Assembly (NCBI GenBank): GCA_944358505.1
Contig: CALVRG010000011.1
Location: 1-51,464 of the forward strand
Direction of reading: 5' to 3'
Source: an uncultured Bacilli bacterium
GTDB lineage: Bacteria; Bacillota_I; Bacilli_A; RF39; UBA660
DNA length: 51,464 nucleotides
The notes beneath the pieces are model-generated. The model ran no database searches. It was not told where the DNA came from and saw only the letters and a program-made list of their open reading frames with translations. Of the stretch, positions 1 to 6,460 are shown piece after piece. Every line of letters starts with the position of its first letter. The first letter of the stretch is position 1. The translations under genes were made by a program, and so were the position numbers.

Positions 1-1304
1 AGTACAGGTTGTCCTTTTTCATAACGTTCTTTTACTTCATTAATTATTGCTTTATATTTAGCACTTCTTGTTGCAAATACTAAATCAGGGGCATCAACTC
101 TTATAACAGGTTTATTAGTAGGTATTGTAATAACATACATATTATAAATATCTCTAAATTCCTCTTCTTCTGTTTTTGCAGTACCTGTCATTCCTGAAAG
201 CTTATTATACATTCTAAATAAATTTTGGAATGTTATTGTTGCAAGTGTTTTAGTCTCTTGATTTATTTTTACTCCTTCTTTAGCCTCTATAGCTTGATGA
301 AGTCCATCGCTATAAGCTCTACCTTTCATTAATCGTCCAGTAAACTGATCTACTATTACAACTTCATCATCTTGCACTACATAGTCAACATCTTTTTTCA
401 TAGCATAATTTGCTCTTAAAGCTTGATTAATATAGTGTAAAAGTGTAGCATTTTCTATTTCATACAAATTCTTTACCTTAAATGTTTTTTCTGCTTTTTC
501 ACTACCTTCATCAGTTAAAGAAACGCTTATTGTACTTTTTCCCGTTTCATCGCATATATAATCTGTATCTTCTTTTAAACTTTTAGCAAATTTATCAGCT
601 TCTAGATATAGATTAGCACTGTGTTGTGCTCCACCAGAAATTATTAATGGAGTCCTAGCTTCATCAATTAAAATAGAATCTACTTCATCAACAATAGCAA
701 AATTTAGTGGCCTTTGAACTCTATTTTCTTTTCTAATTACCATATTATCTCTTAAGTAATCAAAGCCTATTTCATTATTAGTAGAATATAAAATATCACA
801 ATTATATGCTTCTTGTTTTTCTTTTGGAGACATATCTCTTGTATTAACACCAACAGTCAATCCTAAAAAGCGATGTATACCTCCCATCCATTCAGCATCA
901 CGAGTTGCTAAATATTCATTAACAGTGATAATATGTACACCTTTTTCTTCTAAAGCATTTAAATAAGCAGGCATTACACATGTTAATGTTTTTCCTTCAC
1001 CTGTTTTCATCTCTGCTATATTACCATAATGAATTGCAAGTGCACCTAGTATTTGTACATAAAAAGGCTTTTCGCCAATAACACGATATGCAGCTTCTCT
1101 TGCAACTGCAAAAGCTTCGACTAAAATATCTTCTAATGTTTCTCCGTTTTTTAATCTTTCTTTAAATTCTTTTGTTTTATTTTTTAATTCGTCATCACTT
1201 AATTTTTGCATTTCTTCATCAAGTGCAACTACTTTATCTGCCTTTTCAGAAAACTTTTTTAACTCTTTATATTCATGATCAAAAAATTTTGTAAATAATC
1301 CCAT
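1..1304 (-). CDS. secA: Preprotein translocase ATPase SecA (5' part; runs off the window's left edge)
   Basis: Manual minus-strand translation from ATG at 1304 (SD AGGAG): [13 protein letters not shown]...[10 protein letters not shown] (Walker A)...[21 protein letters not shown]...GMTGTA. Not in the ORF track because it is truncated. Confidence 0.97.
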
Positions 1305-1388
1305 TTTAAACATCTCCTTGTATAATGTATTTTATCAAAAAAAAGTAATAATAAAAAGCTTTTGTGATAATTTTATTTATTTTATATA

Positions 1389-1420
1389 AAAAAGAATGAT
1401 ATTTTAATATCATTCTTTTT
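1389..1420 (-). terminator. Rho-independent terminator after hpf
   Basis: Perfect inverted repeat AAAAAGAATGATATT-TT-AATATCATTCTTTTT next to the hpf stop. Confidence 0.8.
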
Positions 1421-1421
1421 G

Positions 1422-1949
1422 TTATTCTGACTCAATTAATCCATATCCGCCATTTTTTCTTTTATAGACAACTGCTTCTTTATCAGTATCAACATTTTTA
1501 AATAAGTAAAATTCATGACCAAGTAGTTCAAGTTGAAGAATAGCTTCTTCTTCATCCATTGGTTTTACTTCTACTTTCTTTCTTTTTATAATATTGTTTT
1601 CTTCATAATCTTCTTCTTCAATATTCATAATACTGAAATCAATCATTGTCTTTGCTTCTTTGGCTTTTATTTTAGTTTTATTTTTTCTTATTTGTCTTTC
1701 TATTATATCTATAGCTTTATCAACAGCAGCATAAAAATCATCTTGTGTCTCTTCAGATCTAATAATAAAATTATGAAGTGGAATTGTAATCTCTACGGTT
1801 TGAAAATGTCCTTTAACTTTTACTACTACATTAGCACGTACATCCTCACTATTTTCTAGATATTTTTCTATCCTTGTTAATTTTTCCTTGATGTAGTCTC
1901 TCATAGCATTAGTTACTTCTATTTTGTTACCTCTAATAATTATTTCCAT
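1422..1949 (-). CDS. hpf: Ribosome hibernation promoting factor, long HPF/RaiA
   Basis: MEIIIRGNKIEVT...DFYAAVD...KPMDEEEAILQLELLGHEFYLF...YKRKNGGYGLIE; the hpf-secA order is conserved. Start moved from 1982 to the ATG at 1949 after SD AAGGTGA. Confidence 0.95.
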   Translation of the reverse strand: MEIIIRGNKIEVTNAMRDYIKEKLTRIEKYLENSEDVRANVVVKVKGHFQTVEITIPLHNFIIRSEETQDDFYAAVDKAIDIIERQIRKNKTKIKAKEAKTMIDFSIMNIEEEDYEENNIIKRKKVEVKPMDEEEAILQLELLGHEFYLFKNVDTDKEAVVYKRKNGGYGLIESE

Positions 1950-1999
1950 ACTATCACCTTCCTTAGTATTAATATACCACAAAAGAAGAAAAAAACCAA

Positions 2000-2218
2000 C
2001 TATTTTACTAATGCTGGTTCTTTTATTGGTGTTACATCAACCGCTTGGTACCCTTTACTAGTTTCAAGTAATGTAAACTCTACATATTGTCCTTCAGCCA
2101 AAGTTTTATAACCCTCACAATTAATAGTTGAATAATGAACAAAAATATCTTCGTTTTCTTTGTATTCAATAAAGCCATATCCCTTTTCATTATTGAACCA
2201 TTTTACTTTTCCAATCAC
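2000..2218 (-). CDS. csp: Cold-shock domain protein (CspA family)
   Basis: GKVKWFNNEKGYGFI (RNP1) and DIFVHYS (RNP2). Probable GTG start at 2218 after SD GGAGGTGA. Confidence 0.95.
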   Translation of the reverse strand: MIGKVKWFNNEKGYGFIEYKENEDIFVHYSTINCEGYKTLAEGQYVEFTLLETSKGYQAVDVTPIKEPALVK

Positions 2219-2318
2219 TAGGATCACCTCCACATCTTTTATTGCTCACTTCTTGCCTACTACTTTCTCAAATGATGTGTTTTCATTATATCAATAGCAT
2301 TATGTTTATTATAATTTT

Positions 2319-2357
2319 TTCCGTTAATTGTCATTTTCATTCCTTTAAATGTTATTT
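2319..2357 (+). promoter_or_regulatory. Candidate LytTR/AgrA-binding direct repeat pair upstream of agrB
   Basis: TTCCGTTAATTGTCATTT (2319) and TTCCTTTAAATGTTATTT (2340) have a 21-bp period. The 9-mer TCCGTTAAT fits the LytTR consensus [TA][AC][CA]GTTN[AG][TG]. Confidence 0.55.
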
Positions 2358-2470
2358 ATATAGAAAAACATAAACATTATTCCAATCGTTCTTTAAAGAT
2401 GCCTTTTTAAGGATAACTTATTTTTTAATTAGTGATTGGAGTTATAATTTTTGTAGCATAGGAGGGTAGT

Positions 2471-3064
2471 ATGAAAGAAGCATTTTTAAATCATTCTATG
2501 GACTTCATATCTAAAAATAGAATTGATATGAGTGACGAAGATAAAGAAAAGCTAATATATGGTTTAGAGGGTCTTTACATGACTATAACTAAACTATTGA
2601 TAATTTTTCTTATTGCTTTGGCTTTAGGTTTTATTAAAGAATTTATTATAACATTAATACTCTTTAATATAATAAGATTTCCAGGTTTTGGATTTCATGC
2701 CAGTAAGTCTATAGTTTGTTTAATTTCGAGTACTATTTTAATTTTAGGATTACCTTATTTATTTGTTAATGTTGAGGTTAATCTTATCATTAAATTAATT
2801 CTATGTTTAGTTTCAGTTATAACATTTATAATCTGTGCTCCTGCTGATACCTATAAAAGACCACTTACTAATAAGAAAAAGAGAACTATTAGAAAGGTTT
2901 GTGCCTGTACTATTGCAATAATTTATAGTGTTATTATTATTGCCTTTAATAAGAGCATAATTAGTGATTTGTTATTAGCAGCACTTATGATTGAAACTGT
3001 TTTAATTTCTCCTATAATGTATGTTATTTTTGGAGAACCTTATAATAATTATAAAAAGGTTTAA
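2471..3064 (+). CDS. agrB: Accessory gene regulator B (AIP-maturing membrane peptidase)
   Basis: 197-aa polytopic membrane protein with YGLE, RFPGFGFHA..IVC (catalytic His/Cys region) and APADTYKRPL motifs; SD GGAGGG. Confidence 0.95.
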   Translation: MKEAFLNHSMDFISKNRIDMSDEDKEKLIYGLEGLYMTITKLLIIFLIALALGFIKEFIITLILFNIIRFPGFGFHASKSIVCLISSTILILGLPYLFVNVEVNLIIKLILCLVSVITFIICAPADTYKRPLTNKKKRTIRKVCACTIAIIYSVIIIAFNKSIISDLLLAALMIETVLISPIMYVIFGEPYNNYKKV

Positions 3065-3114
3065 ACATTTATATGTTTAAATAAATATGTAGTAAGGAAA
3101 GGATGAGAAGTGAA

Positions 3115-3234
3115 ATGAAAAAAAGAATAGCTAAAGTTCTAGCTGCTGTTGCTATGTTAGCTACTGCAAGTGCTAGTATGGGATGTGCTTGGTGGATGTG
3201 TGAAGAACCAAAAGCATTAAAAAACATGGATTAA
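3115..3234 (+). CDS. agrD: AgrD cyclic-lactone autoinducing peptide precursor (39 aa)
   Basis: Manual translation MKKRIAKVLAAVAMLATASASMGCAWWMCEEPKALKNMD*: amphipathic leader, Cys-aromatic core, EEP tail. It lies 50 bp after agrB with SD AAAGGA; an alternative in-frame ATG is at 3103. Confidence 0.9.
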   Translation: MKKRIAKVLAAVAMLATASASMGCAWWMCEEPKALKNMD

Positions 3235-3240
3235 TAAATT

Positions 3241-3265
3241 AAGAGTGTGAATTCACTCTTTTTTT
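3241..3265 (+). terminator. Hairpin terminator between convergent agrD and agrC
   Basis: AAGAGTG-TGAATT-CACTCTT followed by a T-run; overlaps the agrC stop. Confidence 0.65.
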
Positions 3266-4542
3266 AATTCTAATTTTTGAATAAAATAATTATCTATAGT
3301 TTTTACTTCCGTATTAAAAACCTGTGATTTTTTAATTATTTTGTCTGCAAAATATAAACCTTTACCATGGGTACTACCTTTTGTTGTAAATCCTTTTTTA
3401 ATTACATTCTTTAAATTTATTTTACCTTTAAAACTATTTGTTATAACAAATAAGATATTTTCTTTAATTTTATATACTTCTAAAGTTATCTGTTTTTTTT
3501 CTGAATTTATTGCAGCCTCTATTGCATTATCAAAATAAATGCCAATAAGTTGACTTAATTCTCTACAAACAACTGAAGAAAATTTAAAATCATTATCTTT
3601 TAATTTAGGACTAATATCTACTGATATATTTAATCCTTCCATGTTCGCTACTAATAATTTATAATATATTAAGCTTTTTATTTCTCCTTTTGGTATATAT
3701 TTTATTTGACCAAGTATATATGTGTCAGCAGTTAAATCAACTTTTAAAATATCACTTAATATTTTTATTATTTTTTCATCTTTTGTGGCATCTATTATTT
3801 TTGAAAGTTGATTTTTATATTCGTGTATCTTTAAGTCTTGCTTTTCTTGATAATCCTCTACATTGCGCATACATTCTGTCAATATGTTATTTTGAATTAA
3901 AAGCCTATCATATTTTATTATTTCACACATATAGATTAATATTAATAAAATAAAGACAATAATTACAATATTAATAGTAAAATAATACTTTGTTGGTGCA
4001 AATAAATTCGATGTCGTATAATAACAAATGCATATAGCTATAAAAGCAAATAAGCAATAAATTATAAGAGCTCTATTTTTAGGCCTTTCTAATCTTTTAG
4101 TACTATTAGTAATGAATTTATTAATAGGTTTCAAATTAAATATAAAATATGTCACTAGTGAAATACATGTATTAGTTAAAAACATGATTAAATAGTTGTT
4201 TCTCATTGCATCAAATTCCATAAAATTAATCATTATAGCTGAGCATATCAAATCTGGAATTGTTGAAACTATCATTATAAATAATACATATATTAGGCTA
4301 ACTATTATATCAATTTCAAATATTTTCTTCACTGACAATGATAAAAACAAAAAAGTTAAAAATGTTGTAAAATCATATTCTGTTGTAAAAAATACTATAG
4401 TTGGTAAAATACTTAATAAAATCCACTCTAAATTCTTTATGGTTAATAACTTTATTTGTGATTTTGTTATTTTTTTGATAATTAATATAGCAATTAAATT
4501 CATTAAAGTGATATTAATTAGTTTTACTATTACTAGTGACAT
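3253..4542 (-). CDS. agrC: AgrC-like sensor histidine kinase (GHKL domain)
   Basis: About 6-7 N-terminal TM segments, H-box HEYKNQL, N-box GIYFDNAIEAA and G-box GFTTKGSTHGKGL. Confidence 0.9.
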   Translation of the reverse strand: MSLVIVKLINITLMNLIAILIIKKITKSQIKLLTIKNLEWILLSILPTIVFFTTEYDFTTFLTFLFLSLSVKKIFEIDIIVSLIYVLFIMIVSTIPDLICSAIMINFMEFDAMRNNYLIMFLTNTCISLVTYFIFNLKPINKFITNSTKRLERPKNRALIIYCLFAFIAICICYYTTSNLFAPTKYYFTINIVIIVFILLILIYMCEIIKYDRLLIQNNILTECMRNVEDYQEKQDLKIHEYKNQLSKIIDATKDEKIIKILSDILKVDLTADTYILGQIKYIPKGEIKSLIYYKLLVANMEGLNISVDISPKLKDNDFKFSSVVCRELSQLIGIYFDNAIEAAINSEKKQITLEVYKIKENILFVITNSFKGKINLKNVIKKGFTTKGSTHGKGLYFADKIIKKSQVFNTEVKTIDNYFIQKLELKKE

Positions 4543-5254
4543 ATTTAATCAACTCCTTTTTACCAGATCTTGATATTAAGTTAGTACTCATACCATTTAT
4601 GAATAACACTTCATTTTCTCTTATATTATAAGTACTTATTTTATCAGTATTTAAAATTAAACTCTTATGTACTTTTAAAAATCTTTTATCTAATTCCTTT
4701 GATATTGCATTTAATGTATAAGATGCTTTGAAAGTACCATAATCCGTTTGAATAATACATCTTTTGCTATCTTGTTCTTTCTCAATAAAAATAATACTTT
4801 TTAATTCTATTTTATATAATGTGTAATTGTATTCATAATTTAAACATTTTTCTTTACTGTTATATTGTTTATAAATTATTTTTAACGTCTCTTTTATTTT
4901 AGTTTTGCAATTGTCATATTTACTTATAAAATCTAATAAATATAATCTATTAGTTAGTGCTTCATAACGATATTCTGAAAAAGAAGTTACGATTACTATA
5001 ATAGAATTCCAATCTTCTAATTCTTCTCTTATAAACCTTGTAGCATCTAATCCTGAGCCGTCTTTTGTTTTAATATCAAGAAAATATACTTTAAATCCTA
5101 GGTCTTTTCTAGCTAATGCTTCGAAACGTTCATCATAAGTTTCAAATGTATACTTTTTATATTCAATATCATAACTCATCATAAACTTATCAATTTCATC
5201 TGTTACTAGTTTTCTAAACTCTTTTTCATCATCACATATAATAAAATTTAACAC
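4514..5254 (-). CDS. agrA: AgrA-like LytTR response regulator
   Basis: Receiver domain (IICDDE, YFLDI with phospho-Asp, FISK) plus LytTR domain (IIFIE...FLKVHKSLILN...ISRS). Probable GTG start at 5254 after SD AAGGAGG; overlaps the agrC start. Confidence 0.92.
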   Translation of the reverse strand: MLNFIICDDEKEFRKLVTDEIDKFMMSYDIEYKKYTFETYDERFEALARKDLGFKVYFLDIKTKDGSGLDATRFIREELEDWNSIIVIVTSFSEYRYEALTNRLYLLDFISKYDNCKTKIKETLKIIYKQYNSKEKCLNYEYNYTLYKIELKSIIFIEKEQDSKRCIIQTDYGTFKASYTLNAISKELDKRFLKVHKSLILNTDKISTYNIRENEVLFINGMSTNLISRSGKKELIKYVTSNSKTN

Positions 5255-5338
5255 TACTTCATCCTCCTTTACACAACACCCTCTAAATTTTACCATATAT
5301 TTCCAGTTTATAAAATTTTTGTCAAAAAAAAATAGTAG

Positions 5339-6460
5339 CTATTTAACCCTATTTTTCTTTTTAAATTTTTGTTCTTTTTTTATTACTTCTCCTACTTTTT
5401 CAATAATATTATCTGTTACTTCTTTATTCTTTTTAGAAATTATAGTTGTTCTTAATACAAACCAAACAACTATAATAAATATTATTATATATAAAATTCT
5501 ACCCATAACTGGATCTTTTAATGAATAGAAAATTGATGCACTCGCAAATAAAAAATTAAATCCATAAATTATTAATACAGTTGTTCGTTGAGAGAAGTTC
5601 ATTCCCAAAAGTTGATGATGTATATGCTCTTTGTCTGGTGAAAATGGTGCTTGATGTTTTAAAAGTCTTCTTATTATCGCAAATAATGTGTCCAATATTG
5701 GAATTCCTAATATCATAAGTGGTACAAACAAACTAGTAAGCGCTGGTCCTTTAAATTCTAATAGTGTTATAACCGCTATCATAAAGCCTAAGTACATAGC
5801 ACAGTCTCCACAAAATATTTTTGCCGGATAAAAGTTATGTAGTAAAAAACCTAACGTTGCTCCTAACATTATAAATGTTAATATCATTACTAATGTTCCA
5901 CTACGTCCTTGAAAATATCCAATAATACCAATAGTTAAGAAAAATATACTACATATTCCACCACTTAATCCATCTAAACCATCTATTAGATTTATTATAT
6001 TAACACATGCTACTATAAAGAAAATAGTGAAGGGATATGATAACATTCCAAAATTTAATGTATAACCAAATGCTGTTATATTATTTAAAAGAAAGCCTCC
6101 ATAGAAAACAAGAATTGATGCTGCTATTATTTGTCCTATTAGTTTTGTTCTTGCTCTTAATGATTTAATATCATCTGCAATACCTGTTAATATTATAATA
6201 AAACTGCCTATTAGTATAGAGTTCATTTGAACACTTTCTGTTCCAAATAGCATATAACTTATTAGGAAAGCTAAAAATATTCCTACTCCACCTAATTTAG
6301 GGGTTGCCTTTGTGTGTATATGTCTATGTCCTTCATCGTTTCTTGGAATATCTATAGCTCCAATATGCTTTGCTATTTTTTTCATAAATGGCATTATAAG
6401 AGCAGAGCAAATAAATGTTGTTATAACTATCTTTAATATGGAAATTATTTCTTGATTCAT
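5339..6460 (-). CDS. tagO: Undecaprenyl-phosphate GlcNAc-1-phosphate transferase (TagO/WecA, MraY family)
   Basis: PKLGG, GIADD, NIINLIDGLDGL, PAKIFCGD and PDKEHIHH motifs; polytopic. Confidence 0.9.
   Translation of the reverse strand: MNQEIISILKIVITTFICSALIMPFMKKIAKHIGAIDIPRNDEGHRHIHTKATPKLGGVGIFLAFLISYMLFGTESVQMNSILIGSFIIILTGIADDIKSLRARTKLIGQIIAASILVFYGGFLLNNITAFGYTLNFGMLSYPFTIFFIVACVNIINLIDGLDGLSGGICSIFFLTIGIIGYFQGRSGTLVMILTFIMLGATLGFLLHNFYPAKIFCGDCAMYLGFMIAVITLLEFKGPALTSLFVPLMILGIPILDTLFAIIRRLLKHQAPFSPDKEHIHHQLLGMNFSQRTTVLIIYGFNFLFASASIFYSLKDPVMGRILYIIIFIIVVWFVLRTTIISKKNKEVTDNIIEKVGEVIKKEQKFKKKNRVK

Follow-up and report, generated by a model that had tools for sequence, protein, structure and literature searches.

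AgrB and AgrD are the textbook enzyme-substrate pair of agr systems. In Staphylococcus aureus, R70, G75, H77 and C84 of AgrB are reported to be required for proteolysis, the cut falls between Met32 and Asp33, i.e. four residues past Cys28, and the Asp33-Glu34 pair is essential for this cleavage (PMC10196373). The S. aureus genes form a four-gene operon with RNAIII, and the resulting autoinducing peptide (AIP) has a five-residue ring and an exocyclic tail of 2-4 residues. In Clostridium acetobutylicum, agrBD and agrCA are described as two separate units, with a Cys nucleophile, a signal-peptide-like leader and a predicted six-residue ring; its AIP, a six-membered macrocycle without tail, carries the designation R6T0 (six-membered ring, no tail) (PMC10301443, PMC8251862, PMC4916163). 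A LanM-like homologue of CA_C0082 directly downstream of the agr cluster is an association reported for six-ring systems (PMC10301443), and is not a strict definition of this subgroup. R. cellulolyticum makes the six-residue cyclo-CWFWSY (Rc-AIP1), a homodetic cAIP: without a tail, the thiolactone undergoes S-to-N rearrangement with a half-life of 5.4 min, and the clostridial AIPs detected are reported to be all tail-less and all rearranged to all-amide rings (PMC8251862). Finally, AIP precursors with two Cys are in print, with the extra Cys in or near the core. They comprise C. botulinum AIP-1 (PMC12312760) and a subset of precursors with canonical SPII signals, some of which have two Cys with the first as the proposed lipid site (PMC13056109, 2026); in these precursors the extra Cys precedes the ring Cys in the sequence, as a residue of the tail or as the proposed site of lipidation.

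Here, we analyzed a window of 51,464 nucleotides, i.e. the whole stretch of DNA under study. Its host, from the chicken gut, is an uncultured Bacilli bacterium with a small genome and belongs to the genus of Candidatus Onthousia; the genome bin comprises 0.92 Mb in 74 contigs, with a completeness of 72%. The agr locus in this window resembles that of S. aureus in the spacing of the catalytic Arg, Gly, His and Cys of AgrB, in an acidic pair that would come right after the cut in AgrD, and in a hypervariable core with pherotypes and a co-varying AgrC (PMC10196373, PMC12312760). By contrast with S. aureus, its ring is probably of six residues, its leader is signal-peptide-like and its two gene units are convergent. 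With C. acetobutylicum, it has in common the separate agrBD and agrCA units, the Cys nucleophile, the predicted six-residue ring and the type of leader, and we suggest that it would work like the clostridial agr systems with this arrangement. It is probably similar to the six-ring C. acetobutylicum type. However, the units converge in the window, no LanM-like gene follows, the neighbors are a cold-shock gene and a gene for a family 4 glycosyltransferase, and the host is a reduced-genome Bacilli bacterium and not a Clostridium. A weak search of the genome (72% complete) for PF13575 gave no hit, and its controls gave none either. The likeness to Rc-AIP1 lies in the core itself, which is six residues long, Trp-rich and hydrophobic and starts with Cys, so that Rc-AIP1 may serve as a model for a tail-less product of this agrD. 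Rc-AIP1, however, has a single Cys, while the core in the window ends in a second one, which would give two neighboring thiols if the peptide rearranged. Compared with the two-Cys precursors in print, this extra Cys would be inside the ring or at its C-terminal end.

The agr locus and its small precursor gene

The features of the locus are listed in Table 1. The agrB product is a predicted membrane peptidase that would cleave off the follower of AgrD and carry out ring closure. Its residues R69, G74, H76 and C83 are spaced as R70, G75, H77 and C84 of the S. aureus enzyme, and this catalytic motif is kept in all but one of the 63 loci scanned. The kinase gives a weak full-length match to the AgrC model NF046015 (residues 14-424; 38.7 bits, equivalog cut-off 500) and the regulator one to the AgrA model NF046049 (E 1e-11; 44.8 bits, cut-off 400), while the receiver domain of the regulator scores 23.7 bits, below the cut-off of 30.2. 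Scores far below the cut-offs of staphylococcal equivalog models are expected for distant hosts. The agrBD unit on the plus strand and the agrAC unit on the minus strand are convergent with a hairpin between them, and a terminator scan of positions 2200-5400 found two sites compared with 0.4 expected. The flanks of the locus are housekeeping genes for a hibernation factor, a cold-shock protein, a family 4 glycosyltransferase, MreB and an M23 peptidase. Judged by gene content, the locus is a complete agr circuit with agrB, agrD, an AgrC-like kinase and an AgrA-like LytTR regulator. When read from the first ATG, the regulator gene and the kinase gene share 29 bases (4514-4542), and 17 residues precede the receiver-domain match in the regulator ORF; the true starts of both genes are probably internal, downstream of the first ATG.

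Table 1. Coordinates of the agr features in the window
Feature	Position	Strand	Basis or description
Candidate AgrA (LytTR) site	2321..2348	+	Two 7-9 base direct repeats, ~150 bases 5' of agrB
agrB	2471..3064	+	PF04647, E 4.9e-32, 111.2 bits (cut-off 23); 197 aa
agrD	3115..3234	+	39-aa precursor: leader 1-23, core 24-29, follower 30-39
Hypervariable core, proposed six-residue ring	3184..3201	+	Cys24-Ala-Trp-Trp-Met-Cys29; column entropy
Terminator-like hairpin	3241..3260	both	7-pair stem, 6-base loop
AgrC-like sensor histidine kinase	3253..4542	-	PF14501 (HATPase_c_5), E 2.5e-11; 429 aa
AgrA-like response regulator	4514..5296	-	PF04397 (LytTR), E 1.8e-12; 260 aa

The agrD ORF follows agrB on the same strand after a gap of 50 bases. 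It consists of ATG, 38 further codons and TAA, and its translation is MKKRIAKVLAAVAMLATASASMGCAWWMCEEPKALKNMD; the codons of Cys24 (3184-3186) and Cys29 (3199-3201) are both TGT. An earlier note on this DNA had proposed a 39-residue ORF with the core GCAWWMCEEP as the precursor of an AgrD-type peptide, and the core reads exactly as given there. An in-frame alternative ATG at 3103 would give a 43-residue form; the start that is conserved among relatives is the MKK start at 3115. The note had also described the ORF as unannotated and below the cut-off of ORF-callers. The first part stands to the extent that the gene is nameless, as are all 43 members of its cluster that were examined. The second part does not, because the 43-residue form is a called protein already in NCBI and ENA, on a contig of 51,464 bases (record P0077), which places agrD within the reach of ORF-callers.

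Of 32 related loci, 30 have a small ORF of the same shape after agrB; of the two exceptions, one (L015) ends too early and the other (L003) has a different peptide. In an enlarged set, agrD is carried by 54 of 63 loci; its nucleotide sequence exists there in 36 distinct versions, and the conserved residues show synonymous variation. The pN/pS ratio is 0.38 in the leader, 0.70 in the core and 0.15 in the follower, i.e. the follower region is under purifying selection. Database searches gave 76 relatives among 77 candidates, nearly all of them 39 residues long. The AgrD model TIGR04223 scores 13.8 bits on the window peptide (E 0.049; cut-off 19) and matches 42 of 48 aligned relatives at E <= 1, with a best E-value of 2.4e-6. 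A minus-strand ORF that overlaps agrD (3069-3227, 52 aa) was rejected, since conservation tracks the plus frame. No relatives of AgrB or of the AgrD profile were found in the PDB. With its conservation and its position next to a catalytically intact AgrB within a complete agr locus, agrD is, on the evidence of sequence, a genuine and conserved precursor of an AgrD-type AIP, in agreement with the earlier proposal.

Upstream of agrB, a direct repeat is formed by TTCCGTTAA and then TTCCTTTAA, 21 bases apart from start to start. This repeat was found in a search specific for the 21-base spacing, while a general direct-repeat search at default settings found no repeats. Allowing at most one mismatch, the pattern has one match in the window compared with 0.08 expected, and at least one match in 8 of 100 shuffles; the exact pattern is present in 26 of the 63 loci, and in each of these with a known agrB position it occupies the same place upstream of the gene. 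LytTR regulators bind direct repeats of such a kind, and the repeat in the window, a candidate AgrA site, resembles their sites. Its conservation would support a feedback by AgrA. A scan for sigma-70 promoters was uninformative, with 39 sites compared with 27.4 expected in this AT-rich DNA.

Variation of the core and the size of the ring

Across 48 aligned AgrD sequences, M1, A11, T17, A20, S21, G23, C24, E31, P32 and L35 are invariant. Computed over 62 distinct 39-residue peptides, the entropy at residues 25-29 is 2.58, 1.31, 1.21, 2.34 and 2.23 bits, respectively, and falls to 1.24 bits at residue 30 and to 0 at residues 31-32. Thus, the variable block comprises exactly the five residues after Cys24. 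AgrD therefore has the layout of a hydrophobic, variable core that begins after an invariant Cys and ends at a conserved, acidic and Pro-containing follower; among 72 distinct nine-residue cores, residue 30 is E in 46, D in 21, N in three and A in two.

The core does not vary independently of the receptor. In 25 comparisons, the AgrC of the window is 62-65% identical to that of three loci with the cores CAWWMI, CGWWMI and CAWWLF, 56% identical to that of a locus with CSWWLL and 42-45% identical to that of five further loci, whereas it is only 29-34% identical to AgrC of 16 loci despite an AgrB identity of 56-78%. In other words, the identity of AgrC to its relatives tracks the AgrD core rather than AgrB. 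This co-variation has the appearance of the classic agr specificity groups and provides indirect evidence that the peptide may be the ligand of the AgrC encoded next to it. In a related observation, AgrC falls into deep lineages, with approximately 30% identity over the whole protein including the kinase domain, among genomes in which AgrB is 72-78% identical (comparisons with L004-L032). This suggests that whole agrC cassettes, perhaps together with agrA, have been exchanged within the genus and that gradual divergence is not the cause.

Whether the ring has five or six residues was the right question for the earlier note to ask, and spacing and variability favor six. Specifically, variability is limited to residues 25-29, an acidic residue and Glu-Pro come next, and both the S. 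aureus cut and the clostridial six-residue rings provide precedents; a 2025 primer also states that some species have rings of 6, not 5, residues (PMC12312760). With Glu30-Glu31 in the role of the S. aureus Asp33-Glu34 pair, the cut would fall after residue 29 and the ring would comprise six residues. Moreover, residue 29 (position +5 relative to Cys24) varies about as often as positions +1 and +4 in every band of receptor similarity, which is the behavior expected of a specificity position; with only three pairs at a sensor identity of at least 70%, this analysis of receptor pairs is suggestive and not decisive for ring size. We consider it reasonably probable that the ring is the six-residue CAWWMC, with closure at the carboxyl group of the second Cys, in an argument that draws on one characterized cleavage site by analogy and on the pattern of variability.

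The main competing reading is a canonical five-residue ring, Cys-Ala-Trp-Trp-Met, with AgrB cutting between Met28 and Cys29 and Cys29 being discarded with the follower. Five residues are the rule among characterized AIPs (PMC12312760, PMC4916163). Position +5 holds small or hydrophobic residues only (V, A, I, L, C, F, M, S), a set that would also be possible at a tolerant, poorly constrained first position of the leaving group, and the closest pair of receptors with differing cores (sensors 85% identical) differs solely at +5, with V in one core and I in the other. However, a cut at this site would leave Glu-Pro one residue farther away than the Asp-Glu pair is in S. aureus; the entropy at +5 (2.23-2.45 bits) is similar to that at the ring positions +1 and +4 and twice that at residue 30; and rings of six residues do exist. 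We therefore regard the five-residue ring as rather unlikely, while giving it more weight than the two readings that remain.

In one of these, the leader is an SPII lipoprotein signal, Cys24 becomes the diacylglycerol-modified N-terminus and the second Cys is free for other chemistry. Such a route has been proposed in print for some AIP precursors with two Cys, and the same source calls the case of single-Cys precursors unclear (PMC13056109). The leader does have a start rich in K and R, a run of hydrophobic residues and the motif S-M-G-C. Furthermore, 17 of 48 family leaders weakly match the lipoprotein family TrbK_Ti (best E 0.014), and Lgt and LspA are encoded in the genome. Against a lipid-modified Cys24 stand the 43 of 71 distinct six-residue cores in which Cys24 is the only Cys and must, thus, be the ring nucleophile. 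A second Cys at +4 or +5 precedes the conserved acidic-Glu-Pro follower by only one or two residues, too few for a ring to be formed in between. In addition, the convincing lipoproteins of this genome mostly have [LVIST]-T-G-C followed by polar residues, whereas here S-[VM]-G-C is followed by AWWM; the agreement of AgrD with the genome's own lipoboxes is limited to the Gly at -1 and the general shape of the signal. With single-Cys cores, no room for a ring and a mismatched lipobox, we rejected the lipoprotein route as highly improbable. Even less credible is that agrD is a chance or decayed small ORF without a product and that the function of the locus resides elsewhere. The HMM score of the window peptide is below threshold, and a metatranscriptome run (X20) gave a single contig of 212 bases on agrB (2473-2684, two differences) and none on agrD; contigs of an RNA library are in themselves no proof of transcription. 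This reading was likewise rejected. Against it stand conservation with synonymous change across 36 distinct nucleotide versions, the invariance of Cys24, Glu31 and Pro32, partner genes that are all intact and a receptor that co-varies with the core.

The second cysteine and the form of the product

A second Cys is present in 28 of the 71 distinct cores, 24 times at +4, three times at +5 (CAWWMC, CGWWMC and CAWFLC) and once at +2. The earlier note had called it unusual. Within the genus it is common, while the description holds among characterized AIPs, since in the table of PMC12312760 a second Cys is present solely in the tail of the C. botulinum peptide. The core CAWWMC recurs, behind different leaders, in five more peptide records (P0001, P0012, P0055, P0078 and P0079), of which P0079 was seen on 18 contigs, the longest of 124 kb. 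CAWWMC is, therefore, a stable allele and not an error. Literature searches limited to the articles proper found no paper on an AIP closed by a C-terminal Cys, and PMC12180512 and PMC8748961 contained nothing on cores with two Cys or rings of six residues.

Between loci with related receptors, the second Cys swaps with Phe or Ile: sensors are 72% identical for the pair CLWWFA and CLWWCA, and 60% identical for CAWWMI and the window core. Because it exchanges with hydrophobic residues, the plain reading of the second Cys is that of a hydrophobic ring residue, and this reading would fit the exchange as well as any special chemistry does. We also considered repeated gain of the Cys at +4. On an AgrB tree of 36 rows, this label needs nine changes, of which the well-supported branches (4 of 33 inner branches) force only two, and 84 of 500 shuffles cluster the label at least as strongly. 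Since the AgrB tree is poorly resolved, the origins of the +4 Cys are uncountable and we make no claim of repeated gain.

From the genes observed, their families, their conservation and their pattern of variation, we suggest the following model based on the six-residue ring as the preferred reading; its cleavage site, ring size, leader cut and feedback are the parts that we infer. AgrB, with His76 and Cys83 as catalytic residues, would cut the precursor between Cys29 and Glu30 and hold the carbonyl of Cys29 as an acyl-enzyme. The thiol of Cys24 would then attack, giving the six-residue thiolactone Cys-Ala-Trp-Trp-Met-Cys, and the follower EEPKALKNMD would be discarded. In this model, Cys29 is the C-terminal residue of the ring, i.e. 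it would supply the carbonyl of the thioester and keep a free thiol of its own. Removal of the leader after Gly23 would leave no tail, and removal after Ala20 would leave the tail Ser-Met-Gly. Without a tail, an S-to-N shift would convert the thiolactone into an all-amide cyclic hexapeptide with two neighboring thiols. The cognate AgrC would sense the peptide, and AgrA would act back on the promoter of agrBD.

The leader is signal-peptide-like and has two small-x-small sites, A18-S-A20, which would give the tail S-M-G, and S21-M-G23, which would give no tail. By the -3/-1 rule, such sites are suited to signal peptidase I. A single gene for this peptidase scores over the cut-off in the genome, next to one CPBP/Rce1-like protease gene found in the same genome, and the presence of these peptidase genes does not allow a choice between a tail of zero and one of three residues. 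If the tail-less pattern of the detected clostridial AIPs is valid here, the product would have two adjacent thiols. The leaders of the AgrD family have a lipoprotein-signal-like shape and give single matches to two other lipoprotein families.

Taken one step further, these considerations lead to dithiol autoinducers. A cut between Gly23 and Cys24 followed by rearrangement would give an all-amide cyclic hexapeptide with adjacent thiols, which could close to a vicinal disulfide and act as a redox-reporting signal. We regard this as improbable. If true, the activity of such a signal would report redox state or exposure to oxygen besides cell density, and the variants with Cys at +4 would form a bridged bicyclic form.

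Relatives, coexisting alleles and significance

Of 36 further genomes from this genus, 32 have AgrB, as do 5 of 24 genomes from outside it, and the related loci are from metagenome-assembled genomes of uncultured Bacilli or Tenericutes bacteria and of Candidatus Onthousia species. Five sequencing runs from three studies contain at least half of the sampled words of the window, i.e. four chicken-gut metagenomes and one gut metagenome; in the three of these runs that were checked, pieces at >= 99% identity to the window were found. The run that contains most of the window may be the sample from which it came.

The genome bin of the window holds two further agr loci. On contig C46 of this bin (G000), a second, syntenic copy (L002, positions 1-3318) has genes for the hibernation factor and cold-shock protein, agrB, agrD and a convergent kinase gene; its DNA is 74-81% identical to positions 1422-3482 of the window, its core is CVWIIA, and it has two tandem cold-shock genes. 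Because a single match was obtained in every one of the 32 other matching genomes of the genus, C46, a short contig, is probably from a second congener that was binned in and not a paralogue. On contig C74, a third and distant agrB (L003, 202-807) encodes a protein that is 35% identical (Pfam AgrB, E 3.9e-35), again with a convergent kinase gene. The small ORF at positions 866-979 of this contig encodes 37 residues ending in ...SVGQARTLWLVWDEPTCPEELL, has no Pfam hit and has no Cys before its Asp-Glu-Pro follower; to close a lactone, the Thr six residues before the follower, or a Ser further up, would have to be used.

In the chicken-gut run X1, contigs differ from the window at 11 places and by small indels within positions 3168-3204, i.e. 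at the agrD core, and the same run also contains a contig with an exact match. Several agr alleles, thus, seem to coexist in one sample, and co-resident congeners with other alleles are more obvious partners for cross-talk than the gut clostridial or enterococcal agr systems that the earlier note had considered.

The agrD of the window is itself ordinary, and the literature already describes its family, rings of six residues, the rearrangement from S to N and precursors with two Cys; a second Cys within the ring would be a small, testable twist. The locus adds one uncharacterized pherotype to the large and strongly diversified agr family of this uncultured chicken-gut lineage, in which genomes measure 1-1.5 Mb. 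It also provides a case on which ring size can be tested, together with the effect, if any, of a ring-closing or in-ring Cys on AIP chemistry. With its naturally occurring set of at least 71 distinct cores and of receptors that co-vary with them, the family is suited to the study of how the specificity between AIPs and their receptors evolves.
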